DNA from: Chlamydiales bacterium
Lineage (GTDB): Bacteria > Chlamydiota > Chlamydiia > Chlamydiales > JBDQID01
Assembly: GCA_047611865.1 (NCBI GenBank)
Contig: JBLFWS010000007.1
Coordinates: 1 to 39,806 of the forward strand
Direction: 5' to 3'
Length of the DNA: 39,806 nt
The notes under the pieces were generated by a model that worked only from the letters and a program-made list of their open reading frames with translations, made no database searches and had not been told where the DNA came from. Within the stretch, counting starts at the first letter, position 1. Every line of letters starts with the position of its first letter. Made by a program: the position numbers and the translations under genes. Positions 1-16,047 of this stretch are shown in pieces.

Positions 1-75
1 TTTCGCGAAATTAAGCGAACGCAAGTTTTGCGATCTTTTGTTCTATTCTGAATGTATCTTGAAAGTATTTATAAG

Positions 76-127
76 AAAAAGTAGCGGCAGTCGGATTTGA
101 ACCAACGACACCCGGATTATGATTCCG
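76..127 (-). repeat. Displaced 3' half of tRNA-Met; att-like direct repeat at the island end distal to the tRNA
   Basis: 52 bp identical to 6066-6117 (aaaaagtagcggcagtcggatttgaaccaacgacacccggattatgattccg). Identity stops inside the anticodon stem. Confidence 0.95.
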
Positions 128-242
128 AGGCATTCAGCTTGATTCATCACGATAGCACACATTCCAACACTTGCCTTAGAGAGGTTTAGGTCTTTTTCAT
201 ATCGACATCTGTCGATTCATAATCGTTGGTATTATAACGAAG

Positions 243-260
243 TGCACCAAAATTGCACCA
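243..260 (+). promoter_or_regulatory. TGCACCA-N4-TGCACCA tandem repeat, putative integrase arm-type binding site
   Basis: tgcaccaaaattgcacca, about 115 bp inside the left att. The same motif recurs at 2193-2210 and 5982-5999. Confidence 0.6.
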
Positions 261-377
261 AAAAAAATAAGCGAAAAGGTCAGGGAGTGTGTTACTTTTT
301 CAGAAGAGAGAGTTCTTTGCCAGTACATAGTTACTGGAAGACCTAACTGAAAAAAATCTGAAACTGGAGCTTGAAAA

Positions 378-545
378 ATGATGAATGGCGGAATCGAATT
401 GTGAAGTAAAAGTTCTATTGAAGCCTATATTTTTGCTTGTAAATGTAAGAAAGCTTTTTCTCACCCATTACCGATAGCATTTTTTAAAGACGGTGTTTTT
501 AAATGCCCATGTTGTGCGATAGACATCACATTTTTTATGAAGTAG
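378..545 (+). pseudogene. Possible small zinc-ribbon protein interrupted by an in-frame TGA
   Basis: My translation: MMNGGIEL*SKSSIEAYIFACKCKKAFSHPLPIAFFKDGVFKCPCCAIDITFFMK*. CxC...CPCC pattern; GGAG lies upstream. Confidence 0.3.
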
Positions 546-588
546 GGTTCCAAAAATGTGGCTCTAAGCATTTGAAGATCTTTCTGTT

Positions 589-1454
589 TTAGTTTAGGAA
601 TATTGTTTCTTTTAGAAACTCATTGATTACTTTGATAAGGTCTTCGATGTTAACAGGGAGACTTTTCTCATCAATTAGTGTGGGGTGAAGTTTTGAGAGA
701 AAGGGTTTCCAGTATTCTTGTAAGGTATTGGTTTCTTCCTCATTAAAATTGATAGGGAGTTCTAGCGGGATTTCTCGATGAGAAAAGACTGTTTCGATAA
801 CCTGTTTCGTTTTGTTAGCCTCTAATAGACCGGTTTCTTTTGTCATTAAAAACAGATCGAAAAAATCTTTCATTCGACTGTTGCTGCCTCCTCTTGACAC
901 TACCGTTTCAAGTTTTTCAGCAAATATGAATTCTGGAGGGTAGCAACTAAGTTCAATTTTGAGATCCGGAAAGACATCATTATTGAGATGAGTTAGTTCT
1001 ATTTCTCTTTCTATGGGATCTACAAGGTCTCCAAAGCCAAGGTCGATGGTAATTTTGAATCGAGTATTACCGAAATTTCCTTTTAAGCTGACTTGGGTTC
1101 CTGGGTAAAGCATGTGGAAATGGGTCAGAGGGTCTATTTCAACGTCAGAAAAGGAAAAGTGATCTTGAAGGTCAATTGTAGCAATTTCATTGAAAACTTT
1201 TTGAAGTGTTTCCGATTCATTTTTCAGTTTTCGAACTAAAAAGTCCAAGTCACGGGTTTCACGTCCAAGTTCCATATATGTGGTGAGAAGTATGCCGCTC
1301 TTTAGGATGAAATGTTAAGAATGGGGCGATAGAGAAATTCTAGCTAATATGCGTTCCAAGGCTATGAGCTGCCATAGTTCTGCGGTATTGATGCCTCTTT
1401 GTTTTGCTGCGTTACGTACTTTTGCTTTAAAGGATTTTCTAGTGATGTGGTCAT
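589..1454 (-). pseudogene. abiEii: AbiEii-family nucleotidyltransferase toxin (type IV TA), inactivated
   Basis: The 589-1275 ORF has R-x-T-x-D-x-D (RETRDLDF), AEKL and NSRMKDFFDL motifs. The natural start ATG at 1454 overlaps the abiEi stop. The N-terminus is broken by a frameshift (about 1435-1438) and a TAA (1315-1317). Confidence 0.9.
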
Positions 1455-2047
1455 GTGGTTATAGCTTCGATATAGGGTTTTAGGTCAACTCTGAGTATCT
1501 TGGCGTATTTAGAAAGTTTGGGTAAATTAGGTTTGTGGTTCTTACTTTTTTTTAGGTAATTTTGAAGAGCTTTTACGGCTGTTTCTTTATCTAAATATCG
1601 GAAACAGTCAATGACTGTTCGTTCCCTATCGAAAATTCTAACCTCGTACTCTCCAATGAGTAACTTAAGAGTCCCAAGGCTTGTATTACGCATGCGAATT
1701 ATTCTGGTATTTTCTCGTTTTGGAGCGCGGGCTCTGTGGGGGACTGCTATCCAATAATCGCGCATGAATTCGTCAGTAAGGTCGTAATAACATAATGCTG
1801 AGACAAGGCAGATTATGGCTTCTGGTATACTTGATGAGATTAAGGCTAAATCTTCCCACTGGGGATCAGCAACGGATTCAAATTCAGCTGAGCGGTATAC
1901 GCCTCGGCTAACACGTTTTAAGTAACCCTTTTCATAGAAGTAAATTAACATTCTAGGGGGAATTCCAGCCTTCTTCGCTTCCGAGCTTGTGAAAGAAGGT
2001 TTCTTGAAAAGGGGCTTGATGTATTGCCAATACTTTGATCTATCCAT
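1451..2047 (-). CDS. abiEi: AbiEi-family antitoxin / transcriptional regulator (type IV TA)
   Basis: N-terminal wHTH (LKRVSRGVY), ICLVSALCYYDLTD and FDRERTVIDCFRY motifs; translationally coupled to abiEii. Confidence 0.93.
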   Translation of the reverse strand: MDRSKYWQYIKPLFKKPSFTSSEAKKAGIPPRMLIYFYEKGYLKRVSRGVYRSAEFESVADPQWEDLALISSSIPEAIICLVSALCYYDLTDEFMRDYWIAVPHRARAPKRENTRIIRMRNTSLGTLKLLIGEYEVRIFDRERTVIDCFRYLDKETAVKALQNYLKKSKNHKPNLPKLSKYAKILRVDLKPYIEAITT

Positions 2048-2052
2048 GTAAT

Positions 2053-2103
2053 AAATGTAACAGACGCACCCAAAGTGGTCAATTGGGTGCGTCTGTTACA
2101 TTT
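2053..2103 (-). promoter_or_regulatory. abiE operator/promoter: perfect 21-bp inverted repeat overlapping a sigma70-type promoter
   Basis: aaatgtaacagacgcacccaa-N9-ttgggtgcgtctgttacattt. On the minus strand TTGACC-N17-TACATT ends 7 bp before the ATG. Confidence 0.88.
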
Positions 2104-2170
2104 TTATAGGCTGAAATCCCCATAATTTAGAGCATAGCTATAATAGGTATTAGTTAGAGATGGGGTGTTT

Positions 2171-2210
2171 GACTTGCTTATTTGAAAGCAACTGCACCAA
2201 ATTTGCACCA
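2171..2210 (+). repeat. 40-bp direct repeat, copy 1 (identical to 5960-5999)
   Basis: gacttgcttatttgaaagcaactgcaccaaatttgcacca; contains a TTGCTT-N6-AAGCAA palindrome plus TGCACCA twice. Confidence 0.95.
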
Positions 2211-2407
2211 AAAATTTTTAGAAGGTACGCGGATACATGTACACAGGTTTATTCGTACATTGCCCACTTTTTCCACCTAAAAATCTTTGAAAGAAAGAGG
2301 TGTAATATTATACGTATTGTCTCAGAAGGACTTGGAAGAGTCTTTTTCTGAATAACCTGAGGGGATGTATAACATGTACTGTAAAATATGGGGAGCATAG
2401 ATAGGGA

Positions 2408-2626
2408 ATGAGCTGGAATTTTGATGTAATCAGAGGACAACTCACCAATGGGATTGATGTATCCGTGGAAGGGTTTCGAGGGGGAAAAGTACCTGTTGAG
2501 GATCCCTCTGATGAAAATAGCAAAGAAGAGTTAATTATTGATCCTGAAGTTAACACGAACTTGCAAAGTATTTTTAGTATTAATGCGGAAATGGCAGCTA
2601 GCGTTCAGAAAAGGAGCCTGGTGTAG
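2408..2626 (+). CDS. Hypothetical acidic 72-aa ORF; probably the N-terminal fragment of a frameshifted larger gene
   Basis: AGGGA lies upstream. The frame of the next ORF is already open from 2602, overlapping its end. Confidence 0.5.
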   Translation: MSWNFDVIRGQLTNGIDVSVEGFRGGKVPVEDPSDENSKEELIIDPEVNTNLQSIFSINAEMAASVQKRSLV

Positions 2627-2670
2627 TTAAGGAAAAAACTTTAGGAGAGGCGATTGTTTCTAGAGTTTCA

Positions 2671-3591
2671 ATGCTGCAAATTAAGCTGCTTGAGTATTAT
2701 CAGGGACTGGGGGCGCAGTTTCGAGAGGCCGTTCAAGGTGGCCATTGTGATTTTCTTTTAGTTCTAGCAACTGTATTTAATTCAATTCAACGTAGAGATT
2801 TACCTTCCTTATTTCCGGGAATATTCAGTAATGAAGATTTATATGACAATTTGCTAGGTAGTTGGGAACGGTATGAAGTTAATGCAATGAATTATCTGGA
2901 GCTTGCAGAAAACTGTCTTCAGGCATCTAAAATATGTGAATCAGGTACTTATATTCATGATGATGACGTTTCCAGGCAAGAAAAGGAACTTTGTAAGAAT
3001 CATAATATTCAGAGTAATAAAAAATCAGATGCTCAAGTGGAAAGGAGGGAGGAAGCAGAAAGGGCTTTTTCAGAACTTCGTGAGTTAGAACGTAATATTA
3101 ATGCAAAAACTGGAGATACGCAAAAAGAAGAAAGTAAGCAGCTAGGTAGTTTTGTAGATGAGTGGATAGAGGTGGTTTGCAAACCTATAGATGAGTTAAC
3201 TGGGGAGCTTGAAGAGGACTTAAACAGTATTTCTTTGGTAGTAACGACCTTGGAAAAAGAGTATCAAGTGATAAAAGGTGAGTACAATGAAAAGATTGAC
3301 GATTTGCATTTGCAGCAAAGAGAAAAGAATGAGCGAATGCAGGAGGAATTGGCTGCTCTCCGAATAGCCTGGGAAGTAATAAGGGAGGGAGCTAAAAGAG
3401 AAAGAGATAGCATAAAAATGGGATATGAGGATGAGATAAATACTCTTACAAAAGAGCTGGACAATCTTCGTGAAGCTTATTGGGATCCCTCAGATGATGA
3501 GGAGTTGAAAGTTTTAAACCTTCAGAAAGCTGCTCTTTCATACAAGATTATGTATTTGACAATGAAGACGATGATGCATGGATTATGGTAA
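2671..3591 (+). CDS. Hypothetical E/K-rich coiled-coil protein; probably the middle fragment of a larger gene
   Basis: 306 aa with a heptad-rich C-terminal half. The last residues (MYLTMKTMMHGLW) look out of frame. Confidence 0.7.
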   Translation: MLQIKLLEYYQGLGAQFREAVQGGHCDFLLVLATVFNSIQRRDLPSLFPGIFSNEDLYDNLLGSWERYEVNAMNYLELAENCLQASKICESGTYIHDDDVSRQEKELCKNHNIQSNKKSDAQVERREEAERAFSELRELERNINAKTGDTQKEESKQLGSFVDEWIEVVCKPIDELTGELEEDLNSISLVVTTLEKEYQVIKGEYNEKIDDLHLQQREKNERMQEELAALRIAWEVIREGAKRERDSIKMGYEDEINTLTKELDNLREAYWDPSDDEELKVLNLQKAALSYKIMYLTMKTMMHGLW

Positions 3592-4823
3592 ATCAATATT
3601 TCATCAGTAATCCTAAAGCTAGTGTGGTGTTAACAAAGCTGGGGCAAGTTAGTTTATACTATGGGAAGCTGAATGAGGCATACAAATTGTTTTACGATGC
3701 GATTCACTGTGATGAGAATAGCGAACTCCCAAGAATCTTCCGGGCATCTGTGCTTAGAGAAAAGGGAAGGTTTAAAAGAGCTCTAAAAGAACTAAAAAAC
3801 ACTGTATGGGGGGATTATGATGAATCGAAAAATATTGGTTTGTATTTAGAACTTGCTTGTATTCATATTGAACTTAAGCAATTTGATAAAGCAATTAAGG
3901 AAATAAACAATGCTATTGAGAAGGATCCTAATAATATTTCTTTGTATTTAGATCGGGCTGCAATTTACGATTTTAACAATGAACCAGAGAAGGCGGCACA
4001 AGATATTGCGCAAGTAAGTAAAATGGAGAAAAAAGATTTCTTTAAACCCGATTATGCTACCTGCCTACTGAACAGGATAGGATCAAGGGTTGCTAGCTGC
4101 CCTCAAGATTTGTTAGCGAAAAAGATTTACGAACAAATTCAGGAAGAAAGAAAGAGGGATCCTTTTTATTCCGGAGAGTTCGAACAATTTTCTTTAGAGA
4201 AATCTGAACGCTTTGATTTGGAGATTATTGATATTTCAGGATTGGGAATAGGTTGGGTCAATGGGATTAAAAATTCGGAGAGCGGTTCGAAAGCAAATGC
4301 AAAAATGTTGTCCGAAATGGCTGGAGGTTTGAATATACACGGTGTCTACAATGCCAGCCATGGTTTTAGGTTAGATTTAATAGAGTGTTTATTAGGCTTG
4401 TCAAATGTTTCTACAGAACCAGTCAAAAATCTGCATGGCACTTGGAATGACTTTTTCAAAAATAATCCTGATGATGCTGTTTTTTTACAAGTTTGTCATA
4501 GTCAAGGAGCTATACATGTAAGGAATGCTTTGGAGAAATATCCAGAGGAGCTTCGCAAAAGAATACAGGTAGTTGCTGTTGCTCCTGCAGCTTATATTTC
4601 GGCAGATCTCTGTTTAAAGGTAGACCATTATACATCCTCGAGAGATTTCATTCCGTGGATTGATTATGAAGGTAGAGATGAGTGTCAAGAGACAATTCAT
4701 GTACTTTCTGGAAATGGATTTTGGGATCATAGTTTTGATAGTATTACCTATAGGGATGTTCTTGAGGGTCATATTCAGGATTATATCGAACAATACGGAA
4801 ATAAAATAAAAGGAGTCGCATAA
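3585..4823 (+). CDS. TPR protein with C-terminal alpha/beta-hydrolase domain (chlamydial DUF687-like, lipase-type)
   Basis: TPR helices in the first approx. 150 aa, then WVNGIKN, nucleophile elbow CHSQGA (HSQGA at 4497-4511), RDFIP and DHSF, a candidate Ser-Asp-His triad. Confidence 0.8.
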   Translation: MVNQYFISNPKASVVLTKLGQVSLYYGKLNEAYKLFYDAIHCDENSELPRIFRASVLREKGRFKRALKELKNTVWGDYDESKNIGLYLELACIHIELKQFDKAIKEINNAIEKDPNNISLYLDRAAIYDFNNEPEKAAQDIAQVSKMEKKDFFKPDYATCLLNRIGSRVASCPQDLLAKKIYEQIQEERKRDPFYSGEFEQFSLEKSERFDLEIIDISGLGIGWVNGIKNSESGSKANAKMLSEMAGGLNIHGVYNASHGFRLDLIECLLGLSNVSTEPVKNLHGTWNDFFKNNPDDAVFLQVCHSQGAIHVRNALEKYPEELRKRIQVVAVAPAAYISADLCLKVDHYTSSRDFIPWIDYEGRDECQETIHVLSGNGFWDHSFDSITYRDVLEGHIQDYIEQYGNKIKGVA

Positions 4824-5362
4824 TGCGAGCTATTCTTGGATTTATTTTCGCAGTGATCTTGGTTTTCATTATTCCTTCTTGTTCAGGAGATAGTCATCAA
4901 CTTTCCGAAAAAGAGAGCTTTGGCTACAAAATTATTGGTACTACCGCAAAGGTTCTGGAGAAAAGATACAAACTTCAGGTTATTGGATCGGGGGCAAGTA
5001 TGCCTGATATGGTCAGATCACTAAATATTCATTTTAGAATTGATCGGCCTATAGAGAAGTTGGAGGCCCGAAAGATTATCGTAGATTGTGCATCCGAATT
5101 GATAAAAAACATGAACAATTCGGAGGTTATTAGGCCATATTTGCAAAACTACCCAGTAACAAGTCAAAATATCGAAGTAACACTATTTAGTTATTATCCT
5201 GATGGAAGCAGGGTATACTTTCCCCTTGTACACTCGGTTGCTGTTAGGCGAGGGGGAATTGCCTTTTTTACAAAAGATCCAGAACATGAGTTTGGCTATA
5301 AAACAGAAGAGTATGAAACATTTGAAGAGGCTCTGGAAATCTTAAAACAGGACAAAAAATGA
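4823..5362 (+). CDS. Putative lipoprotein, candidate immunity protein
   Basis: Signal peptide with lipobox-like IIPSC (Cys20); TAATG stop/start overlap with the hydrolase gene. Confidence 0.75.
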   Translation: MRAILGFIFAVILVFIIPSCSGDSHQLSEKESFGYKIIGTTAKVLEKRYKLQVIGSGASMPDMVRSLNIHFRIDRPIEKLEARKIIVDCASELIKNMNNSEVIRPYLQNYPVTSQNIEVTLFSYYPDGSRVYFPLVHSVAVRRGGIAFFTKDPEHEFGYKTEEYETFEEALEILKQDKK

Positions 5363-5850
5363 GTCGCAGTCTCGATAGAGAAGAAGTTAGTGACTTTTGT
5401 GCAAAAAAAGATAAGGTTATAGGGCATCTTCAAATAGTGTTATGGGGCATCTTGTCAGTTCTAACATTGACGGTAGCCTTTTGCTTCCTTAATCTATTCT
5501 ATTTGAGTTATTCCAACGGACTTTCTATGAGCGTGATGGCGGATGGGATTGTCATTTTATGTTTATTTACCTGTATGAGGTTTATAAATCCTGGAGTGAT
5601 AAGGTTTTTTTGCGATCTTGTTTATAAGTATCCATCTTCCAAAAGAATGAGGTTGTTAAAAACTTTTTCAGTTCTGTTATTTTGTCCCTTGGTTTGGATT
5701 TTTCTTGTTTCATTATCCAGTATTTTTTGTGCTCTTTATGTTGAAGCTGTGGGGTTGAGTGTTTCTTCAGAGATGATGTACACGTTGTTATCTCCGATTT
5801 CGATGTTTTTCTTACTTTTCTTAAGAATAAGGCTTTGGTGGTTTTTTTGA
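5359..5850 (+). CDS. Hypothetical membrane protein (about 4 TM)
   Basis: Four hydrophobic segments; ATGA overlap with the upstream gene. Confidence 0.65.
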   Translation: MSRSLDREEVSDFCAKKDKVIGHLQIVLWGILSVLTLTVAFCFLNLFYLSYSNGLSMSVMADGIVILCLFTCMRFINPGVIRFFCDLVYKYPSSKRMRLLKTFSVLLFCPLVWIFLVSLSSIFCALYVEAVGLSVSSEMMYTLLSPISMFFLLFLRIRLWWFF

Positions 5851-5959
5851 AGTCAACGTTCGACAACGAAATGTTGTTCTATGACCATGAATTGTTGTCG
5901 AAAAGGGAGAGGCAAGTTTTGTTTTGGGGATGGGGTGGCTCTCAATCCACGGGCTTTTA

Positions 5960-5999
5960 GACTTGCTTATTTGAAAGCAACTGCACCAAATTTGCACCA
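5960..5999 (+). repeat. 40-bp direct repeat, copy 2; arm-like region next to the tRNA-proximal att
   Basis: Identical to 2171-2210; ends 66 bp before the att repeat. Confidence 0.95.
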
Positions 6000-6071
6000 T
6001 TTTACAAGTGGCTGTGGCTTGTTGACGCTGAATTGGAACTATAAGTTATTGGAGATAAGAAAGATAAAAAG

Positions 6072-6145
6072 TAGCGGCAGTCGGATTTGAACCAACGACA
6101 CCCGGATTATGATTCCGGTGCTCTAACCAACTGAGCTATGCCGCC
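6072..6145 (-). tRNA. tRNA-Met(CAT), elongator-type; island integration site
   Basis: GGCGGCATAGCTCAGTTGGTTAGAGCACCGGAATCATAATCCGGGTGTCGTTGGTTCAAATCCGACTGCCGCTA folds as a cloverleaf; CCA not encoded. Confidence 0.95.
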
Positions 6146-6154
6146 AAGAAAAAA

Positions 6155-6227
6155 TAGCGGGGAGAGGATTCGAACCTCCGACCTTTGGGTTATGAGCCCA
6201 ACGAGCTAACCCCTGCTCCACCCCGCG
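6155..6227 (-). tRNA. Initiator tRNA-fMet(CAT)
   Basis: CGCGGGG 5' end with C1:72 mismatch, three G-C pairs in the anticodon stem (TTGGG CTCATAA CCCAA), GGTTCGAATCC T-arm. Confidence 0.95.
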
Positions 6228-6287
6228 ATAAGGCTTTCTTCTATCGGGTTTCGTAAAGAAGAAGGTGTGAATATAGCAAGGGTGGGG

Positions 6288-6326
6288 ATTTTTTAACAAG
6301 ACAAAAAGATTTTTTTGTTAAAAAAT
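6288..6326. promoter_or_regulatory. 12-bp inverted repeat in the divergent tRNA/thrA promoter region
   Basis: attttttaacaa-N15-ttgttaaaaaat; each arm supplies a TTGTTA -35-like hexamer pointing outward. Confidence 0.35.
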
Positions 6327-6370
6327 ATGCTTTCTCGTGCTACTCTCCGAGGATTAGGAGGAAATACTAT

Positions 6371-8848
6371 ATGAAAATATTGAAGTTTGGTGGGACCTCT
6401 GTTGGAAGTCCCGCGAATATAAAGTCAGTCATGCAGATTGTAGAAGACGCTCAGGAAGATGGTGAGCGTGTGGTGGTGGTGGTTTCCGCCTTTGGAGGCG
6501 TAACGGACCGTCTGATTGAAATGGGTAAACTGGCAGCTACTGGTGACAATCGTTATCATGAATTATTGGACTCTTTAGAGCAGAGGCACCTTGAAGCGGT
6601 GAAGGCTCTGGTAGAAGAGGGTGAGCTGCGAACTTGCATCATTAGTAATGTAAAGGAAAGTCTCAAAAAACTTTTTGACGTTTTTCATGGAATATACCTT
6701 CTTAAAGAGTTGTCCCTTAAGACAATGGATTTACTTGTAAGCTTTGGTGAGTTGTTGTCAGCATACATCATAGCTGAGGCGTTCAAGGATAGTGGTGTTG
6801 ATGCGGAATTTTTGGATACGAGGGATCTGCTGAAAACGGATGAGTCTTTTGGCTGTGGTAAAGTGTACTTTGAAAGAAGCTACCAGAATATCCAGGAGTT
6901 TTTCACAGAGAACAAGAGACTACAGATAGCTACAGGTTTTATTGCTTCTACTTTCAACAATGAGACAACGACATTTGGAAGGGGCGGCTCAGATTTTACG
7001 GCAGCTTTGTTTGGTAGAGCTTTAGAAGTTAGCGCCATTGAGATCTGGACGGATGTAGACGGAGTGATGACGGCGGATCCAAGAAAGGTGGGTAGGGCTT
7101 TTCCTATTAATGCGATGACATATGAAGAAGCTATGGAGATGTCCCACTTTGGAGCAAAGGTCTTGCATCCTCCAACGATGCATCCCGCGGTAGAGAAGAA
7201 CATCCCCATAATCATAAAAAATACTTTCAATCCTCTTGCCAACGGAACAGTGATTAGTAGGCAGGCCTTAATGAATGGGCACCCTATACGTGGAGTATCT
7301 TCAATTGATGAGGTGACCTTACTACGTATCCAGGGACCAGGAATGCTAGGTATTGCAGGGGTGTCGATGCGGATATTCGGAGCTTTGGCAAGGAGGGGAA
7401 TCAGCATAATCTTGATTACACAGGCATCTTCTGAACATTCTATCTGTATCGCTGTAGAACCTACATCAGCACGGGATGCGCAAAGGGAAATAGAGGACGA
7501 GTTTTCTCTGGAAATTTACGCCCATCAGGTGGATGAAGTTATTGTGGAGAAAGACTTGTCCATTATTGCTGTAGTAGGGGAAAGGATGCGCCATTCTCCT
7601 GGGATAGCAGGCCGAATTTTTTCGGCGTTGGGAAGGAACCTGATCAATGTAATTGCTATAGCGCAGGGGTCGTCAGAGTTAAACGTTTCTTTTATTACAA
7701 AGAAATCGGAAGAGGTAAAGGCGCTCAATGTTATTCACGATGCCTTTTTTGAGCCCGACTTAAGACCTGTGAATATCTTTCTTACAGGAACGGGCTTAAT
7801 AGGTTCTACACTGCTTGAGCAAATTAAAGATCAGTCAGAGTCTTTAAAAGAAAATCATCAGGTAGACATGCGTATTGTTGGATTGGCTGACAGCAAAAGG
7901 ATGGCTTTCGATGATACGGGGATAGATTTGATTGGCTGGCGAGAGCGACTAAATTATTCTCCCCAGAGAATGGACATCGATAAGTTTATAAGACGGATGA
8001 AAGACTTGAACTTGCGTAACAGTATCTTTGTGGACTGTACTGCGAGTGCCTCTATATCAGAGCAGTATGTAAGAATTATGCAGACAGGATTTTCTATTGT
8101 AACGCCGAATAAGATGGCAAACACTTCTAACTATTCTACGTGGCTTGAGTTGAAAAAAGCTGCAATAAGCTGTTCGGTTCGCTACCTCTATGAAACGAAT
8201 GTTGGTGCAGCATTGCCTATAATCAATACTTTGCATGGGCTCTTGTATAGTGGTGATGAGATATTGAGAATTGAGTCTATATTGTCGGGCTCCTTGAGCT
8301 ATGTGTTCAACTCGATTAGTGAAAGCCGTTCTTTTAGTGAAGTCTTTAGTGAAGCAATAGATAAGGGTTTTACTGAACCCGACCCCCGCATTGATGTGAA
8401 TGGCGTGGATGTGGCGAGGAAAATTCTTATTCTGGCTAGAGAGTGCGGATGTAAAATGGAGCTTGGCGATGTGAAACTCGAAAAGATCGTTGACGAAAGC
8501 GTTTTGATGTCACCAGAGATACCGGAGTTTCTGGAAAAATTGACGACTCTAGATGCCGCTTTTGAAGAAAAGCGTAAGAAAGCAGAGTCGAATGGCAAGG
8601 TCTTACGTTATGTGTCTACTTACGAGGATGGAAAAGCCGAGGTGTCTATTATGGAGGTGGGAGAGGAGCATCCCTTTTACTCCCTTTCGTTCACTGACAA
8701 TATCGTCGCATTTAAAACAAAGCGCTACTTTGAACGGCCTTTAGTAATACGCGGGCCAGGAGCCGGTGGTGATGTGACCGCAGGTGGGGTTTTTGCAGAT
8801 ATTATGTCTCTTTGCAACGAGGGACGGGAGTCTAAGCCATGTCTGTAG
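6371..8848 (+). CDS. thrA: Bifunctional aspartokinase / homoserine dehydrogenase I
   Basis: KFGGTSV, GRGGSDFTA, WTDVDG, two ACT domains, GTGLIG, YETNVGAALP, GPGAG; AGGAGG RBS. Confidence 0.98.
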   Translation: MKILKFGGTSVGSPANIKSVMQIVEDAQEDGERVVVVVSAFGGVTDRLIEMGKLAATGDNRYHELLDSLEQRHLEAVKALVEEGELRTCIISNVKESLKKLFDVFHGIYLLKELSLKTMDLLVSFGELLSAYIIAEAFKDSGVDAEFLDTRDLLKTDESFGCGKVYFERSYQNIQEFFTENKRLQIATGFIASTFNNETTTFGRGGSDFTAALFGRALEVSAIEIWTDVDGVMTADPRKVGRAFPINAMTYEEAMEMSHFGAKVLHPPTMHPAVEKNIPIIIKNTFNPLANGTVISRQALMNGHPIRGVSSIDEVTLLRIQGPGMLGIAGVSMRIFGALARRGISIILITQASSEHSICIAVEPTSARDAQREIEDEFSLEIYAHQVDEVIVEKDLSIIAVVGERMRHSPGIAGRIFSALGRNLINVIAIAQGSSELNVSFITKKSEEVKALNVIHDAFFEPDLRPVNIFLTGTGLIGSTLLEQIKDQSESLKENHQVDMRIVGLADSKRMAFDDTGIDLIGWRERLNYSPQRMDIDKFIRRMKDLNLRNSIFVDCTASASISEQYVRIMQTGFSIVTPNKMANTSNYSTWLELKKAAISCSVRYLYETNVGAALPIINTLHGLLYSGDEILRIESILSGSLSYVFNSISESRSFSEVFSEAIDKGFTEPDPRIDVNGVDVARKILILARECGCKMELGDVKLEKIVDESVLMSPEIPEFLEKLTTLDAAFEEKRKKAESNGKVLRYVSTYEDGKAEVSIMEVGEEHPFYSLSFTDNIVAFKTKRYFERPLVIRGPGAGGDVTAGGVFADIMSLCNEGRESKPCL

Positions 8849-9777
8849 ATCGTGAAGTTCGTGCTTTTGCTCCGGCATCAGTTTCCAACGTTTCTTGTGG
8901 TTATGATATTTTTGGGTTTGCAGTTGATGCACCTGGAGATGAAGTAGTGGTCCGCTTTACTGATGACCATGAGGGGGCCAAAATTGTTTCCATAACGGGT
9001 GATGGAGGGAAGCTCCCGAAAGATGCGGAAAAGAATACAGCGTCTGTTGCCGCCAATGCTTTGCTTAAGCACATAGGGAGAAAAAAGGGAGTGGCGATTG
9101 TGCTGCATAAGAAAATGCCCTTGGGCAGTGGGCTGGGTTCTAGTGCCGCAAGTGCAGTAGCAAGCGTTGTGGCCGTTAATGAGTTGTTGGGAAATCCTCT
9201 GAAAAAAATAGAGTTATTGCCTTTTGTTTTAGAAGGGGAAAGGGTCGCCTGCGGAAGTGCTCATGCTGACAATGCGGCACCATCATTATTGGGAGGCTTT
9301 GTTCTCGTTCGAAGTTACGATCCTCTTGATGTAGTGCAGATCTCGGTACCGGAAAATCTCTTTTGTGCTGTTGTACATCCTCATATGGAGATACCTACTG
9401 AAAAGGCTAGGGGGATTCTCCGTAAAGAACTTTCTATTAAAGATATGGTGACACAGTGTGGAAATGTTGCGGGCTTAACTGTAGGGTTGATGACAGGGGA
9501 TTTTGCTTTGATAGGTCGCTCTCTTTACGATGCTGTTGTGGAACCTCAGCGGTCGGTTCTTATTCCGGGTTTTGAAGAGGTCAGGGCATCGGCAATGAAT
9601 GCTGGAGCGTTAGGTTGCGGGATATCCGGAGCTGGGCCTTCTCTTTATGCCCTGACGACTTCTTTGGAGAAGTCTAATAGGATAGTTGAAGCTATGCGAC
9701 AGTGTTGGGAAGCAATGGATGTGCGAAGTGATGGCTATTCTTCTGTGATTAATCATAAGGGTGCGCATTGTATTTAA
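8839..9777 (+). CDS. thrB: Homoserine kinase
   Basis: GHMP motif PLGSGLGSSAAS, HADNAAP, ISGAGPS. Confidence 0.97.
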   Translation: MSVDREVRAFAPASVSNVSCGYDIFGFAVDAPGDEVVVRFTDDHEGAKIVSITGDGGKLPKDAEKNTASVAANALLKHIGRKKGVAIVLHKKMPLGSGLGSSAASAVASVVAVNELLGNPLKKIELLPFVLEGERVACGSAHADNAAPSLLGGFVLVRSYDPLDVVQISVPENLFCAVVHPHMEIPTEKARGILRKELSIKDMVTQCGNVAGLTVGLMTGDFALIGRSLYDAVVEPQRSVLIPGFEEVRASAMNAGALGCGISGAGPSLYALTTSLEKSNRIVEAMRQCWEAMDVRSDGYSSVINHKGAHCI

Positions 9778-9798
9778 TTTTTCAGGAGGGATCTTAGC

Positions 9799-11115
9799 AT
9801 GAAGTTTACGAGTACTAACAAAATTAGCCCTGAGGTTTCTTTAAAAGATGCTATCATGCAAGGAATGCCAGAGGATAAGGGTCTATATATGCCCAAGTCC
9901 ATACCTGTGATTCAAGAATCTTTTTTTCAGGAAATCAGGTCTGATTCCTGGGAAAGAATTTGTGAAACCGTAGCGGGGGCTTTTTTTTCTGGTGATGTTT
10001 CCAGAGATGTTTTGAAAGAACTTATTCATGAAGCATTGAATTTTGAAGCTCCTCTCGTAAAGATTTCTGAAGGTATTCATTGCCTCGAACTTTTTCATGG
10101 TCCTACTCAAGCCTTCAAGGATTTCGGTGCCCGCTTTATGGCGAGACTCATGGGATATTATCGTAAAGACGATGATGAAGATCTTCATATTCTTGTGGCG
10201 ACTTCAGGGGATACGGGTAGTGCTGTGGGTCATGGTTTTCTTGGGGTGAAAGGAATTAAGGTGTGGATCTTGTACCCGAAGGGAAAGGTTTCTTTAATTC
10301 AGGAGAAGCAGCTGACAACTCTGGGGCAGAATATTACCGCTTTGGAAATAGAGGGTACTTTCGACGATTGCCAAAATCTGGTGAAAGAGGCTTTTACTGA
10401 CAGTGAGCTTCGGAAGCAGGTTTTGATGACTTCGGCAAACTCTATAAATTTCGCACGCCTGTTGCCTCAAGTATTCTATTATATACACGCTTTTACTCAA
10501 TTGGAGGACCGAGGAATCCCTATGGTCTTCTCGGTGCCTAGTGGTAACTTTGGAAATCTCGTTGCGGGCTTATTTGCGGAAAGGTTAGGTCTACCGGTGG
10601 AACATTTTGTTGCCGCGACTAATATTAACGACGCGGTGCCTGAATATTTCAAAACGGGATTGTTTCGACCGCGCCCTTCTGTGCAGACGATTTCGAATTC
10701 TATGGATGTGGGAAATCCGAGTAATTTCGGGAGGATGTTGGCACTTTTTGATAATGATTTAGGAGCTATGCAACGAGAAATTTACGGCTGTAGCTTTACC
10801 GATGAGGAGACCAGGGCTGCCATTGTGGAGGTCTACCAAAATAATGGATATATTATGGACACTCATGGAGCGGTGGGATATCTAGGCTTAAAAGAATATA
10901 CGAAAACCTTGTCTCATCCAGTAAATGGGATTTTTTTGGGGACGGCTCATCCAGCTAAGTTTCTTGACGAAGTACAGCCTCTTATTCAAGAGCCTATAGA
11001 GATGCCAAAAAGTCTTCAGGAGTCTATGGGGAAACCTAAAAAATCAGAAGTTCTTCCAGCGGATTACAAATCTTTTAGGGCTTTTTTATTAGAAAGGTCC
11101 AAGTCCAAAGTATAG
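9799..11115 (+). CDS. thrC: Threonine synthase
   Basis: ELFHGPTQAFKDFG (PLP lysine), ATSGDTG, VPSGNFGN, TAHPAKF. Confidence 0.98.
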   Translation: MKFTSTNKISPEVSLKDAIMQGMPEDKGLYMPKSIPVIQESFFQEIRSDSWERICETVAGAFFSGDVSRDVLKELIHEALNFEAPLVKISEGIHCLELFHGPTQAFKDFGARFMARLMGYYRKDDDEDLHILVATSGDTGSAVGHGFLGVKGIKVWILYPKGKVSLIQEKQLTTLGQNITALEIEGTFDDCQNLVKEAFTDSELRKQVLMTSANSINFARLLPQVFYYIHAFTQLEDRGIPMVFSVPSGNFGNLVAGLFAERLGLPVEHFVAATNINDAVPEYFKTGLFRPRPSVQTISNSMDVGNPSNFGRMLALFDNDLGAMQREIYGCSFTDEETRAAIVEVYQNNGYIMDTHGAVGYLGLKEYTKTLSHPVNGIFLGTAHPAKFLDEVQPLIQEPIEMPKSLQESMGKPKKSEVLPADYKSFRAFLLERSKSKV

Positions 11116-11317
11116 TCCAAGTTTGGTGGGGAGGGGGCTTAAGTCCTTTTGCCTCGCCAAATCAATTATTCTATCTCTTTAAGATGCCAATTTAAACTTA
11201 ACAGAACACTAGTCCGGCATATAAAAACCTCTTCAGTCTCAAAAAAAGACTCAAGAAGAGCGAGTCTACTACCGATACCTCTCTAGTTGTAATCAGGTAA
11301 TGGATACGGAGGTGAAT

Positions 11318-11476
11318 ATGACTGCCAAAGAAAAAGAAGCTCCTGCGAAGGAGCAAAAGAAACCGGAAAAGCATAAGAGAGTTCAAACGGCTGAGGGGTG
11401 GAGAAGGAGTGTTCAAAGAAAATTTGAAAAAATGAACGGTAAGAAGAAGTTCCCGCCTAAAAATGTAAGTAATTAA
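11318..11476 (+). CDS. Small basic protein (52 aa), below the ORF-track cutoff
   Basis: GGAGG RBS at 11308-11312; MTAKEKEAPAKEQKKPEKHKRVQTAEGWRRSVQRKFEKMNGKKKFPPKNVSN. Confidence 0.8.
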   Translation: MTAKEKEAPAKEQKKPEKHKRVQTAEGWRRSVQRKFEKMNGKKKFPPKNVSN

Positions 11477-11496
11477 TTTTAATTTCTTCTTTCATC

Positions 11497-11698
11497 GGCG
11501 TTGTTGCATAACTTAATACGTTTACAATCATTTATTTAACCACCGAGAACACAGAGAGAAAGAAAAATGCATAAAGTCTCTCAGAATATGTTATTAACTG
11601 ATCTGTGATTTTTTTATTTTCTCTGTGCCCTCTGTGATCTCGGTGGCAAAATGTTAATCATAAGCCTCTTGTAGACGAATGTTTTATGCAACAACGCC
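11497..11698. mobile_element. 202-bp MITE with 15-bp terminal inverted repeats and 9-bp target-site duplication
   Basis: TIR ggcgttgttgcataa / ttatgcaacaacgcc, flanked by tctttcatc at 11488-11496 and 11699-11707; nested internal inverted repeat. Confidence 0.9.
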
Positions 11699-11788
11699 TC
11701 TTTCATCTGTAATTTGAGTGTTATTACTGGAACTTATAGGTACGAATAAAGTAAAATATCCTATTTAGTTTACTAATTAGCTCGATAG

Positions 11789-12892
11789 ATGAAAGAAGAA
11801 AATTCCCAAAAAACAGTTGTAGTTGGAATGTCCGGAGGGGTGGATTCTTCGGTGGCTGCGCTTTTGCTGAAAGAGCAGGGGTACAGGGTCATCGGTGTTT
11901 TCATGAAGAACTGGGAAGAGGACGATGAAGACGGCTCCTGTCAGGCAGTATCAGATTATGATGATGTCGTACAGGTCTGTAGTCACATTGGAATCCCACA
12001 TTATTCGGTAAACTTCTCTAAAGAATACTGGGATCAGGTTTTCAGTCAGTGTTTGAAAGAATATGCTGCGGGCCACACCCCAAATCCAGACATTCTCTGT
12101 AACAGAGAAATCAAATTCAAAGTTTTTCTTGAGAAAGTCCTTGAGCTGAATGCTGACTACCTTGCAACAGGGCACTACTGTCGGAATCTCCTTATTGATG
12201 GAGAACACAAGCTTGCAAAAGGTATTGATCCCAACAAAGACCAAAGCTATTTCCTCTATACAATGAAAAAAGAGATTCTGGAGAAGGTACTCTTTCCTTT
12301 GGGAGGCCTATGTAAAGACGAGATCCGAAGAATAGCGTTAGAAAATGGCCTTGTTACAGCTGCTAAAAAAGACAGTATGGGAATTTGCTTTATCGGCAAG
12401 CGCAACTTCAAAGACTTTCTTAATCGCTATATCCCCTCCAATCCGGGAAATTTTGAAACTCCAGACGGAAAAATAGTCGGAAGACACGATGGATTTCCCT
12501 ATTATACCATAGGTCAAAGAAAGGGCCTGGGTATTGGCGGTCCGGGAGAAGCATGGTTTGTTGCGGGTAAAGATGTTAAGCGTAACGTAGTCATTTTAGT
12601 CCAAGGAGAGGGGGACCCTATTCTTCATAACACGGCATTAGTAGCGACCGATATCACATGGGTTGGAAGTCCTCCAGCGCGACTCCCTCATAAATGCATG
12701 GCAAAAATCCGCTATCGGCAGAGCGATTCTCCTTGCACAATCACTCGCATCGAAGGCGACAAGGTGTATGTCGAATTTGATAGTCCCCAGAAAGCCATTA
12801 CGCCCAGGCAGTCCATCGTATTTTATGATGATGATATTTGCCTCGGAGGTGCAATGATTCAAAAGGCCCTTGTTGAGAGCCCTGTAGCTTAG
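11789..12892 (+). CDS. mnmA: tRNA 2-thiouridine(34) synthase
   Basis: SGGVDSS PP-loop, TPNPDILCN, ATGHY, KDQSYFL, YTIGQRKGLG. Confidence 0.98.
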   Translation: MKEENSQKTVVVGMSGGVDSSVAALLLKEQGYRVIGVFMKNWEEDDEDGSCQAVSDYDDVVQVCSHIGIPHYSVNFSKEYWDQVFSQCLKEYAAGHTPNPDILCNREIKFKVFLEKVLELNADYLATGHYCRNLLIDGEHKLAKGIDPNKDQSYFLYTMKKEILEKVLFPLGGLCKDEIRRIALENGLVTAAKKDSMGICFIGKRNFKDFLNRYIPSNPGNFETPDGKIVGRHDGFPYYTIGQRKGLGIGGPGEAWFVAGKDVKRNVVILVQGEGDPILHNTALVATDITWVGSPPARLPHKCMAKIRYRQSDSPCTITRIEGDKVYVEFDSPQKAITPRQSIVFYDDDICLGGAMIQKALVESPVA

Positions 12893-13055
12893 GCCATGTA
12901 TTAAAATTACGAAACGCTGCTTTTAGAGCCTTTTTGCACACTTTTGGATCTCACCCAACCCACCTACTTGTCTAAGTATGGAGAGTTGTGAGCGATCCAA
13001 AATTATAAAAAATGCCCTCAAAATCAGACATTCCCTAATTTGAAAACACGACCTA
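12890..13055. repeat. About 166-bp TA-flanked imperfect palindromic element (MITE/RPE-like)
   Basis: Ends taggccatgtattaaaatta / taatttgaaaacacgaccta; inner pairs ttttggatc/gatccaaaa and tactt/aagta. Confidence 0.75.
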
Positions 13056-13062
13056 TGTTTAG

Positions 13063-14574
13063 CTAGTCTTCTGCCCCATTAAAACTTTCTATGGACTTTA
13101 ATTTTGAAGGCTTTATGGCCATTCCAGCAGCAATAAGCAGGGGGATGACAACGACAGCCCAGCCAATGTTAATTGCCCAGTTCGGGAAGTCACCGTAATT
13201 GCTATCGAATTCTCGACAAACTTGAACAAGAAGAAGAGTGAGCAGGATTAACGGAATGACGTATTTTACGACGTGGTTCCAATTTTTGTGAAGCTGGTAA
13301 TCACTGACACGGTTAATGTACTTTCGTACTTTTTCAGCACCCAATATCCAACCGATAGCCACACATTCCAAGAGGCCTGTGACCACAAGCAGTATATTGG
13401 TGGTAAAGTGATCAATGAGGTCAAGGTAGTATAAACCAGCGTCAGTAGTGAAGACAAATCCCAATGCAAAACAGAGAAAGCATACCCAAAAGGAGATTTG
13501 TTCTTTTCTTACTTCTTGAAGATTATCACAGATGACAACAACAATAGACTCTACCAGAGAAAAGGCACTGTCAATACCGAGTGTCAGCAGGGTGAGGAAA
13601 AAGAGTATGGAGAAGAATCCAGGCCACAAGGGCATTAGGGAGAGGGCTTTTGGGAAGACGACAAATGCCAGACCCGGGCCAGATGCTGCGACTTCTTCAA
13701 TGGGCTGACCCGTTTCTTTAGCCATATATCCCAGAACAGAGAACACCACGAAACCGGCAAAAATACTGATGGCAGCATCGGCAAGGGCAATGTATATGCC
13801 ATCTCTCAGGAGATTGTTGGATGGTTTATTGAAGCTGGCATACGCGATCATGATCCCCATGGAAACACTGAAGGTGAAGAATATTTGACCGGCAGCAGCA
13901 AGCCAGATTTCCGAACTTAAAAGAGCAGAAAAATTGGGTTTTATGTAGTGGTATATACCATCCATTGCTCCGTCAAGGGTGATGCCGCGGAAAAACAAAA
14001 TAACGAGAAGGATGATAGGTAAGGGGACTGTGACCTTAACGACAGAGCCAACACTATGAACACCTTTTCGAATACAGAAGTATATGGCGGTCCACACTGC
14101 AGCTAGTGCAAGGAGTAGGTTCCAGTCGACAGCACCCATGGTGGAGATGCTCGTTGATATGCCCAAAACTTCATCGAAGAAGTACTCTCTTGGTGACGCA
14201 GCCCAGGGTAGTATATCTGAAAAAGACTCTATGAGATAAAAGCACGACCATGCCATCACCACTGCATAGTAAGTCACGACAATAAATGAGGCGCAGACCC
14301 CAAGGAAACCAACACCAGCTAGGCGGGGATGTACTGCTCTAAAGGCACCAATAGCCCCCTTTTGTAACTTTTGACCTAAGGCTAATTCGATGACGAGTAA
14401 GGGGATGCCCAGGACAAATAGAGCTATTAGGTAAGGAAGTAGAAACGAGCCTCCCCCGTATTTGTATGCTAGATAGGGAAAGCGCCAAAGGTTTCCTAAC
14501 CCAACAGCAGAACCGACAGCTGCCAATAGAAATGCCCAGTTAGAATCCCAACGCTCACGCTCAGTACCCGCCAT
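13063..14574 (-). CDS. Sodium-dependent transporter, NSS/SNF family (amino acid symporter)
   Basis: RERW..FLLAAVGSAVGLGNLWRFPY..GGGSFLLPY. The ATG at 14574 is preferred to the TTG at 14625. Confidence 0.95.
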   Translation of the reverse strand: MAGTERERWDSNWAFLLAAVGSAVGLGNLWRFPYLAYKYGGGSFLLPYLIALFVLGIPLLVIELALGQKLQKGAIGAFRAVHPRLAGVGFLGVCASFIVVTYYAVVMAWSCFYLIESFSDILPWAASPREYFFDEVLGISTSISTMGAVDWNLLLALAAVWTAIYFCIRKGVHSVGSVVKVTVPLPIILLVILFFRGITLDGAMDGIYHYIKPNFSALLSSEIWLAAAGQIFFTFSVSMGIMIAYASFNKPSNNLLRDGIYIALADAAISIFAGFVVFSVLGYMAKETGQPIEEVAASGPGLAFVVFPKALSLMPLWPGFFSILFFLTLLTLGIDSAFSLVESIVVVICDNLQEVRKEQISFWVCFLCFALGFVFTTDAGLYYLDLIDHFTTNILLVVTGLLECVAIGWILGAEKVRKYINRVSDYQLHKNWNHVVKYVIPLILLTLLLVQVCREFDSNYGDFPNWAINIGWAVVVIPLLIAAGMAIKPSKLKSIESFNGAED

Positions 14575-14777
14575 TTGTCTTACCCCTGTTTGATGAATAT
14601 CGTGAAACCCCCTTAGGACGCCCAATCCTTATGTAGGGTTTAAGCCAGGTTGTTAGACCTCTTTTATCATATATCCAGGATACAACAGTAGGCTAAACAA
14701 CGTGGGTTAATTGCCAATGCTATTCTCAAAGGGTATTTATATCAAAATGTAATCAAAAAAAAACGAAGATAAAGAAA

Positions 14778-14804
14778 TGTAAGGGGGAAGCCCTCCCCCT
14801 TACA
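14778..14804 (-). terminator. Intrinsic terminator after the thiolase gene
   Basis: tgtaaggggga-N5-tcccccttaca, followed by a T-rich run on the minus strand. Confidence 0.8.
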
Positions 14805-14811
14805 GATAAAG

Positions 14812-16047
14812 CTATGAGGCTTTTTTGACGACGACAGAAGTCACAGTGATATCATTACCACCCATACTTACCAACATACCGTAGGGTTTTTCGATCAAAG
14901 CAGGGTTTTCTGCTTTACCCGTAAATTGATGGAGTAAGTCTACGAGCTGTCGAACTCCACTGACTCCTACAGGATGACCGAAACCACAGAGACCGCCGGA
15001 GAGGTTTGTGGGAATTGTGCTGTCAATGGCCGTGCCACCGTCAAGGAGAAAGTGGGCACCCTTTCCTCTTTCAGCGAAGCCGAGGGATTCTAAGACTAAT
15101 AAAGCTGTTATAGTGAAACAGTCATGGAGCTCCAAGAGGGCTAGGTCTTCTTTTTTTATGCCCGCCTGCTCAAGAGCTTTACTAGCAGCAGCGGCATTGT
15201 TTTCCATATAGGTTAAGTCACCAGGCTTTTGTGTGATGTCACCTTGTGAGGCGCCGATACCGACGATCTCGACGCAGTCCTCTTTTTTTACCCCAAATTT
15301 TGCCAGGCCTTCTTCGGAGAAGAGGGCGATGGATGATGCTCCGTCAGAAACTTTAGAGCAGTCAAAAACATTCAGGTGGGGAACGAATCTCTCGGCAGAA
15401 GGAGGGGTCATCCCCAAGGCAAAGAGATCTTCTGTGCTGTTGTGGTATTCTTGAGCTTTAGAGTTTTTACGAGCATTTAAAATTGAGAGTTCATACCACT
15501 TGGCCATGCCGCGACGTGCGTCTTCTGCACCGTACTTTTCGTAGTATGCTCCGGCTCTTTCAGCAAAGACTCCGGGAAAGAAATGGGCATAACCATCTTT
15601 TCTTTCTTTGCAGTAATAGCCGGCAGAAGAAAGGATGTCGGCGCCGTAAACGGCTTTCAAATTATTTTGTATTTCGAATCCTGTTACATATACGGCATTG
15701 GCCTCGTCAGAGAGGATAGACCGTGCAGCAGCAGCCAGACCACGACCGCCTGATCCACAAGCTCCTTCCGTCGCTGTACAGGGTTTTCCCTTCAGAGTCG
15801 GAACAGCAAAGGGGAGAAATCCAGGTATGTTTGCTTGTTTGAGGAAGCGAGGGGCCATTGTGTTGCTTATGACGCCTTCATCGAAATCACGGCTTTGTAG
15901 CTGTGCGCATGTCCCCTCAGCGGCTTCTTTCAAATACATTTCAAAAGTCGGCATGGGTTTTTTCGGGTTGAACTCTTTGCGTCCCGTTCCGAAGAAAATA
16001 CTATTGTAGCCTGCGGCGGCATAGATTTTTTTTCTTAGGGGTTTCAT
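14812..16047 (-). CDS. Thiolase, SCP2-type (acetyl-CoA C-acyltransferase)
   Basis: EGACGSG, ELHDCF and GHPVGVSG motifs. Confidence 0.9.
   Translation of the reverse strand: MKPLRKKIYAAAGYNSIFFGTGRKEFNPKKPMPTFEMYLKEAAEGTCAQLQSRDFDEGVISNTMAPRFLKQANIPGFLPFAVPTLKGKPCTATEGACGSGGRGLAAAARSILSDEANAVYVTGFEIQNNLKAVYGADILSSAGYYCKERKDGYAHFFPGVFAERAGAYYEKYGAEDARRGMAKWYELSILNARKNSKAQEYHNSTEDLFALGMTPPSAERFVPHLNVFDCSKVSDGASSIALFSEEGLAKFGVKKEDCVEIVGIGASQGDITQKPGDLTYMENNAAAASKALEQAGIKKEDLALLELHDCFTITALLVLESLGFAERGKGAHFLLDGGTAIDSTIPTNLSGGLCGFGHPVGVSGVRQLVDLLHQFTGKAENPALIEKPYGMLVSMGGNDITVTSVVVKKAS

Follow-up and report, generated by a model that had tools for sequence, protein, structure and literature searches.

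The stretch of DNA studied here, called the window throughout, covers 39,806 nucleotides (nt) from the genome assembly of a Chlamydiales bacterium (GCA_047611865.1, contig JBLFWS010000007.1, positions 1–39,806; contig C7 below). A preliminary description, made from the letters alone, had assigned it to a probable chlamydial endosymbiont, and a chlamydial origin fits. Near the left end of the window lies an insert of low GC content, 5.9 kb in length (positions 128–6065), between two copies of a direct repeat that derives from a tRNA-Met gene. One copy is part of the intact gene, and the other is a partial gene copy at the far end of the insert. We consider this island likely to be a decayed integrative element, flanked by attachment (att) sites, that has lost its integrase gene and the second of two proximal pairs of heptamers, that is, a cis-mobilizable element (CIME). 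Its ancestor would belong to a family of tyrosine-integrase elements that is common in the chlamydial order.

The island in the tRNA-Met gene

The two copies of the repeat agree without a mismatch, and the next bases diverge (A at 128, G at 6118). The repeat begins at tRNA-Met position 29, in the 5' strand of the anticodon stem, and runs through the 3' end of the gene and 5 nt beyond it. The perfect duplication of the 3' half of the tRNA gene, which the preliminary description had placed from the anticodon stem onward, is thus present as described, and it bounds the insertion on both sides (Table 1). The GC content is 36–40% in the island, 42–47% in the flank, and 41.5% in the whole genome. 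The tRNA-Met pair of the window also flanks islands at two other loci, L025 and L035. The 86 nt around the second tRNA-Met gene (6146–6231) recur with 100% identity on another contig of the same genome (C97, 5216–5301).

Table 1. Features of the island and of its tRNA-Met target, in window positions
Feature	Position	Strand	Remarks
Distal direct repeat, partial tRNA-Met copy	76–127	-	attR-type junction; 52/52 identical to 6066–6117
Distal arm spacer, repeat to distal heptamer pair	128–242		115 nt
Distal heptamer pair TGCACCAaaatTGCACCA	243–260	+	Presumed arm-type integrase site; opposite orientation to the tRNA
abiEii, type IV toxin-antitoxin (TA) nucleotidyltransferase toxin	589–1458	-	In-frame TAA at 1315–1317; open part 589–1275
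abiEi, antitoxin/regulator	1451–2047	-	Intact, 198 aa; Pfam AbiEi_4; PADLOC AbiEi
Perfect inverted repeat upstream of the abiEi start	2053–2103		21 nt, 9-nt loop
Internal copy of the proximal arm	2162–2224	+	Heptamer pair 2193–2210; alignment reaches 2224/6008
ORF of 306 aa	2671–3591	+	No family match
412-aa protein	3585–4823	+	N-terminal TPR repeats and C-terminal DUF687-family domain
ORF of 179 aa	4823–5362	+	Hydrophobic N terminus ending in Cys, lipoprotein-like by eye (sequence only)
ORF of 163 aa	5359–5850	+	Hydrophobic, membrane protein by eye
Proximal arm	5951–6008	+	Heptamer pair 5982–5999, 72 nt from the tRNA 3' end
Proximal direct repeat within the intact tRNA gene	6066–6117	-	attL-type junction; 52/52 match to 76–127
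tRNA-Met(cat), target gene	6071–6145	-	Intact; ARAGORN
Second tRNA-Met(cat), neighbor of the target	6154–6228	-	Outside the island; ARAGORN

The heptamer TGCACCA occurs in pairs separated by four nucleotides (TGCACCA-N4-TGCACCA), all on the + strand. Such pairs had been reported just inside both ends of the insert, where both are indeed exact, but there are three copies rather than two, the middle one at 2193. The expected number by chance in the window is 0.03, and 0 of 100 shuffled sequences contained three or more matches. A search of the whole genome (272 contigs, 3,592,277 bp) for further exact copies yielded only these three. The 49 nt that hold the middle pair (2162–2210) are 94% identical to 5951–5999.

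Neither a recombinase nor a relaxase or replication family was found by Pfam in the 6 main and 11 small ORFs, and the best match of 28 full-length integrases of the family to window positions 1–7000 by tblastn had an E value of 0.24, in agreement with the preliminary description, which saw none of these genes between the repeats. An apparent integrase remnant of 9–23 residues at 3655–3723 (- strand), inside the TPR gene, was rejected as one chance match repeated through homologous queries.

The window begins at a contig end, 75 nt to the left of the distal repeat copy. A second contig, C112 (10,920 bp), has as its last 127 nt the first 127 nt of the window, and the third copy of the repeat stretch found at its end is therefore the same locus. 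Because 85 contig-end pairs of the assembly share exactly 127 nt, the final k-mer length (k) was evidently 127, with contigs ending at graph branches. The node that C112 and C7 share reaches precisely to the final base of the repeat, on its inner edge. No tyrosine or serine recombinase turned up in either the island or the adjoining 10.8 kb on C112, and genome scans with PF00589 and PF00239 gave no match on C7 positions 1–6200 or on C112. An integrase just to the left would have spoken against a non-autonomous element, and none was found within that distance. C112 also holds no tRNA and no further copy of the repeat, so that the additional tRNA-Met fragments looked for on this side are absent from it. 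C112 does encode, at a distance of about 3 kb, a homologue of IS200-like Y1 transposases; this is a different kind of enzyme.

The only other genome of the same family is G001 (68% complete), in which the two tRNA genes and the thrA-like gene downstream of them are arranged as in the window. The 80 nt beside its tRNA-Met gene align to the left flank of the window with a score of 13 (shuffle mean 3.5, standard deviation 2.0; reached by 1 of 1000 shuffles), but show no alignment to the end of the island (score 8, reached by 37 of 1000). This lends modest support to an empty site in G001 and to an insertion in the lineage of the window, from an aligned stretch that is short and AT-rich. In G001, four short GC-rich hairpins in a row were noted by eye upstream of the tRNA-Met pair (C12, 1–200; locus L009, sister genus).

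Elements of one integrase family in the chlamydial order

The window's own genome contains a partial integrase gene on contig C209. With this fragment as a query, matches at E ≤ 1e-10 were obtained in 63 of 151 genomes of the order, its own genome included. A tRNA gene is present in 22 of the 29 integrase loci fetched (tRNA-Asn, -Leu, -Met, -Thr, or -Tyr; tRNA-Met in 7), and in 20 of the 29 the 460 nt upstream of the integrase contain an exact heptamer that recurs at an 11-nt period. Which heptamer it is varies with locus and subfamily (TGCACCA, TGGACCA, TGGGGAA, TGCGTAA, TGGCACA, and others), while period and position are constant, as expected if the heptamer co-varies with the integrase. There is thus strong comparative support for heptamer pairs as arm-type sites that change with the N-terminal domain of the integrase, and it is this domain that they would bind. 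No description of the chlamydial integrase family or of the motif was found in open-access papers and preprints. We know of no conjugation or mobilization genes for this element family.

The elements with TGCACCA share a common layout. With the tRNA written on the + strand, it reads tRNA, first proximal pair (-), second proximal pair (+), integrase, cargo, distal pair (-), a gap, and the partial tRNA. In intact relatives the first proximal pair is found at +52 to +85; the second is inverted and lies at +175 to +293 in the integrase-bearing elements, whose integrases are 352–369 aa long. Both proximal pairs are present in 6 of 6 integrase-bearing TGCACCA-type loci (L035, L048, L050, L055, L060, and L075), including two (L060 and L075) in which the integrase is interrupted or shortened. 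The distal gap is 115 nt in L035 and L044, 116 nt in L076, 117 nt in L032, and 107 and 116 nt in L077. The partial tRNA copy starts at position 28–31 in these five, and the heptamer pairs run opposite to the tRNA in all compared elements.

When the window is set against this layout, it has the tRNA repeat, starting at position 29, the first proximal pair at +72, and the distal pair with a gap of 115 nt, with the pairs oriented as in the other elements. The gap measures 115–117 nt in 6 of 7 comparable ends and 107 nt in one. The heptamer pairs of the island therefore sit where the presumed arm-type sites of the family sit. What the window lacks is the integrase and the second, inverted proximal pair, which was not found between +175 and +293 even with one mismatch allowed per heptamer. 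The phage-attachment-like (attP-like) architecture proposed earlier is consequently kept in its first proximal and distal pairs but not in the second proximal pair, which all six integrase-bearing loci possess.

An intact counterpart at the same tRNA-Met pair is provided by L035, a 5.4-kb element in a metagenome-assembled genome (MAG) of the Parachlamydiaceae. It is bounded by a perfect repeat of 57 nt, has TGCACCA pairs at +85 (-) and +276 (+) in addition to the distal pair, and encodes an integrase of 355 aa with a complete catalytic domain. L035 and a 13.8-kb element at a tRNA-Asn gene (L076) resemble the window in the start of the repeat, the first proximal pair, the distal gap, and the orientation, but elements of their type carry the integrase and the second inverted proximal pair, whereas the window has neither, and the arms outside the motif are unlike.

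A 21-nt consensus of the window's three copies was also used to scan one genome per species for 185,579 species. It matched 23 stretches, where about one would be expected by chance at even base use (by hand arithmetic). Thirteen stretches come from chlamydial MAGs; the other ten come from Chloroflexota, a Verrucomicrobia-labelled MAG, Solimonas, Paracoccaceae, Saprospiraceae, a Eubacterium MAG, and one further bacterium. A tRNA gene lies within 200 nt of the motif in four stretches. At two Chloroflexota loci the motif marks the end of an integrase gene and is followed by a tRNA gene, and at two chlamydial loci the motif adjoins integrase fragments that share 51% and 40% identity with the C209 fragment.

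At six chlamydial loci, each from a different species (L024, L034, L036, L041, L044, and L045), a 3' fragment of tRNA-Met is followed by a conserved arm of 115 nt and then by the motif. The 133-nt distal arm upstream of the motif is 89–98% identical among them (mean 94%), and the adjoining tRNA-Met fragments (44 nt) are 55–84% identical (mean 68%). The higher identity of the arm than of the tRNA fragments points to recent transfer between species, and the six-species arm looks like the mark of one element lineage that recently spread between obligate intracellular species, a matter that bears on how such bacteria still exchange genes. Heptamer-N4-heptamer pairs at a fixed spacing of 115–117 nt could serve as a simple end marker for an element family common in environmental chlamydiae. 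Scans of metagenome contigs with the 36-nt stretch of left flank plus repeat and with the 40-nt proximal arm gave 0 matches each.

Proposed loss of the integrase and alternative explanations

The sequence of events that we propose starts with a tyrosine-integrase element that would have inserted into the anticodon stem-loop of tRNA-Met by site-specific recombination, restoring the tRNA and leaving the 52-nt partial copy at the far end. A later deletion would have removed the integrase gene and the second proximal heptamer pair but spared the repeat at each junction, the distal pair, and the first of the proximal pairs. The proximal arm, being present a second time inside the island, hints at a former tandem of two related elements from which the joint has disappeared; this would have left an abiE unit (128–2224) next to a four-gene unit (2225–6065). 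We infer both the tandem origin and the order of events. Decay is indicated by the lack of any integrase signal, by the in-frame TAA in abiEii, and by the missing second proximal pair. In its present state the island would be unable to move alone and could be excised only by the cognate integrase of a related element, acting in trans or inserted beside it. As such it would be an ordinary decayed integrative element, a common fate for elements of this kind.

Several observations weigh against this account. Since the repeat matches at 52 of 52 positions and the outer heptamer pairs are exact, the decay would have to be recent or incomplete, and the island is possibly still mobilizable. No integrase-bearing relative alike in sequence was found, and the link to the family is one of layout and a short motif, not of homologous arms. 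With regard to the tandem step, neither a tRNA fragment nor a distal pair follows the internal arm copy (2211–2500 and near 2225–2670). The genome is 95.5% complete in 272 contigs, and a cognate integrase may lie in its unassembled part; the C209 gene itself runs off its contig. Finally, the contig break at the inner edge of the repeat hints that the left flank and repeat have a second continuation in the reads, either an empty site or another occupant, so that the population sampled may be polymorphic here.

Comparable cases are known from other bacteria. CIMEs, in the part of the literature drawn on here (PMC5704250), are att-flanked, have no integration or transfer genes of their own, result from the decay of an integrase-bearing element, and move with a related element inserted beside them. 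The likeness lies in the two junction repeats of the island, the lack of an integrase, and the internal arm copy that hints at a tandem, but CIMEs were defined there from conjugative elements of Firmicutes (relatives of streptococcal integrative and conjugative elements and integrative and mobilizable elements), and the proximal arm of the island is incomplete. For the tycheposons of Prochlorococcus, the sections used of bioRxiv 10.1101/2020.12.28.424599 describe remnants and tandem insertions at tRNA genes; they likewise insert successively at a tRNA gene with partial tRNA copies between them, but they belong to another phylum and integrase lineage, and their excision was shown by polymerase chain reaction. 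Pam100G of Protochlamydia amoebophila UWE25, as far as described in a portion of PMC548262, is also an acquired, repeat-flanked island in an environmental chlamydia, but at 100 kb, with an F-like conjugative transfer system and 17-bp repeats, it is not comparable in size or content.

The strongest competitor to decay, which we nevertheless judge improbable, is an active non-autonomous cassette that is integrase-less by design and is regularly excised and reinserted, as a satellite or an integron cassette would be, by an integrase whose gene lies elsewhere in the cell or on an incoming element. The perfect repeats, the exact outer heptamer pairs, and the contig break at the inner edge of the repeat agree with such a cassette, and so does the presence in the same genome of an integrase of the right family. 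In total the genome holds five matches to tyrosine recombinase families. Full-length recombinases on C65 and C54 are read as Xer-like from their length and score, and a further match is a fragment of 88 aa. The remaining two belong to the island family: the C12 copy is without the end of the catalytic domain, and the C209 integrase is 56% identical to that of L035 over the 225 aa that precede the end of its contig.

The C209 integrase lies near a TGGACCA pair and a tRNA-Tyr-like fragment, and on C72 three TGGACCA heptamers follow a partial copy of tRNA-Tyr. From these sites the C209 integrase is likely matched to an arm and a core that differ from those of the island, and the resident integrases of the family seem to be tied to tRNA-Tyr and TGGACCA sites. 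Together with the truncated C12 gene, the broken abiEii, and the missing second proximal pair, these observations argue against a cassette that is mobilized in trans today. The preliminary description left two options side by side, of which a reduced island that survives as a remnant is the better fit.

Several islands of this type are present in the genome. Further partial tRNA copies were found on contigs C1/C253, C130, C72, C209, C118, and C113; among the copies in this genome are a 44-nt copy of tRNA-Thr(cgt), 100% identical and on another contig than the gene, and a 51-nt copy of tRNA-Leu(tag), 90% identical and about 815 bp from the gene. The tRNA-Tyr-like fragments adjoin TGGACCA repeats. 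At C209 (1–2174) the partial integrase stands directly downstream of another abiEii/abiEi pair, whose genes are not close to those of the island: the C209 element has no similarity to the window at E ≤ 0.01 in blastn or 1e-3 in tblastx.

The cassette explanation also draws on integrase-less units with TA genes that recur at tRNA-Met and tRNA-Asn genes of other genomes. Integrase-less units bounded by repeats, which count in favor of the decay reading as well, were found in L044 (two), L027 (at least one, 4.8 kb), L077 (2.2 kb), and G017 (1.2 kb). In G017, a complete genome from another family, a repeat of 48–49 nt at the same tRNA-Met bounds the 1.2-kb unit (locus L020; C1, 5208–6500), which seems to contain no ORFs besides a HicA-like and a HicB-like one, both named by eye from their translations, and has neither an integrase nor a heptamer pair. 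In L027, the Verrucomicrobia-labelled MAG, units of about 4.8 kb (within 7839–15989) are bounded by three fragments of tRNA-Met and by two TGCACCA pairs, both at a distance of 114 nt from such a fragment; the units encode a RES-domain protein and proteins with leucine-rich and ankyrin repeats, with no integrase in the scanned ORFs.

On a more far-reaching view, tRNA-Met and tRNA-Asn genes of environmental chlamydiae would be platforms for cassettes, on which short integrase-less units stand in arrays and are shuffled between species by one widespread integrase family in trans. Each unit would consist of tRNA repeats, one heptamer pair, and a TA pair or genes that resemble host-interaction genes, in the manner of an integron and not of a graveyard. 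We regard this as doubtful, to the same degree as an active cassette at the present locus. If it were true, such traffic would have left its traces in the island, in the contig break, and in the 115-nt arm that is nearly the same in six species although the tRNA fragments next to it diverge.

It is considerably less probable still, and in our view very unlikely, that the heptamer pairs are operator or promoter elements of the cargo, for instance of the abiE operon, or sites of the host or of an excision factor, with their position at the ends being incidental. The middle pair does lie 146 nt upstream of the abiEi start, an abiE pair in L036 also adjoins a copy of the motif, and no open-access paper or preprint was found that contains both "arm-type" and TGCACCA. 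However, the distances from the pairs to the tRNA repeats are fixed whatever the cargo, and the heptamer changes from one integrase subfamily to another, whereas its 11-nt period and its place between tRNA and integrase stay constant. In L036, moreover, the abiE genes and the motif have a tRNA-Met fragment between them, and the motif there therefore belongs to the next unit. The protein that would bind the pairs could also be an excision factor and not the integrase.

That the repeat arose by misassembly or local duplication, with nothing inserted, can be set aside as hardly credible. The window does start at a contig end 75 nt from the left repeat, in a fragmented assembly with many contig ends sharing a 127-mer. 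However, assembled 127-mers bridge both junctions, since 52 nt is less than k; the island ends are also present in contigs from two further sequencing runs (98–666 and 4678–6095 or 5970–6117), with 0 or 1 differences; the GC content of the island is below that of the flank; and the same layout is found in many unrelated assemblies. The comparison between runs used k = 31 contigs of four of the five runs (X2–X5, without X1, the likely source); against window positions 1–9000, the island was found in X2 and X3 and pieces of it in X4 and X5. These contigs break off within the 52-nt repeat and showed no attB (empty-site) or attP (circle) junction, nor would they have revealed one if it existed. 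Depths, given per contig, were 5–10 for the island and 7–13 for the right flank and did not enter the interpretation.

Cargo genes and neighboring sequences

The two abiE genes are adjacent, but only abiEi is intact. The open part of abiEii matches positions 31–229 of the Pfam AbiEii profile. When the stop codon is read as X, the match extends over the whole profile (1–229) at 110 bits, and the part upstream of the stop also aligns, from residue 7 and at 43% identity, with an intact AbiEii of a chlamydial MAG (L036); the in-frame TAA precedes the conserved N-terminal motif. PADLOC assigned AbiEii with an E value of 7.8e-70 and AbiEi with 2.3e-76, the latter over its full length. The perfect inverted repeat lies 6 nt upstream of the abiEi start and could be an operator of the abiE operon or a terminator.

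The 412-aa protein matches Pfam DUF687 (E = 2.6e-10) as well as TPR families. Its homologues (33–50% identity) cover only the C-terminal half, and two of them are named DUF687 family protein by their sources. For the 306-aa ORF, no family scored above the cut-off in Pfam, NCBIfam, PADLOC, or PHROGs, and there was no usable Atlas match; the 179-aa and 163-aa ORFs likewise had no family in these four collections. The earlier statement that the island carries only conflict genes does not hold, in that abiEi and the broken abiEii alone match defense models and the other four ORFs have no defense family.

On C112, the IS200-like Y1 transposase homologue (7006–7971) is fused to a DnaA-C-like helix-turn-helix. 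The same contig encodes a protein of 1592 aa (520–5298) whose N-terminal domain is FecR-like and which also has a very long tract that is acidic and rich in Glu. A threefold repeat of GACATTTG with an 8-nt period (C112, 10729–10752) lies on the left side of the left repeat copy, with its end 116 nt away; this is the same distance as that of the distal heptamer pair on the right side, and the GACATTTG repeat lies outside the island.

Genes for abiE beside elements of this kind recur in L032 and L036. The tRNA-Met islands of L036 (2674–5690) and L044 (2992–4967) have in common a cargo of LD-carboxypeptidase and AadA-like nucleotidyltransferase domains, to which L036 adds a fusion of a chloramphenicol-phosphotransferase-like domain with GNAT.

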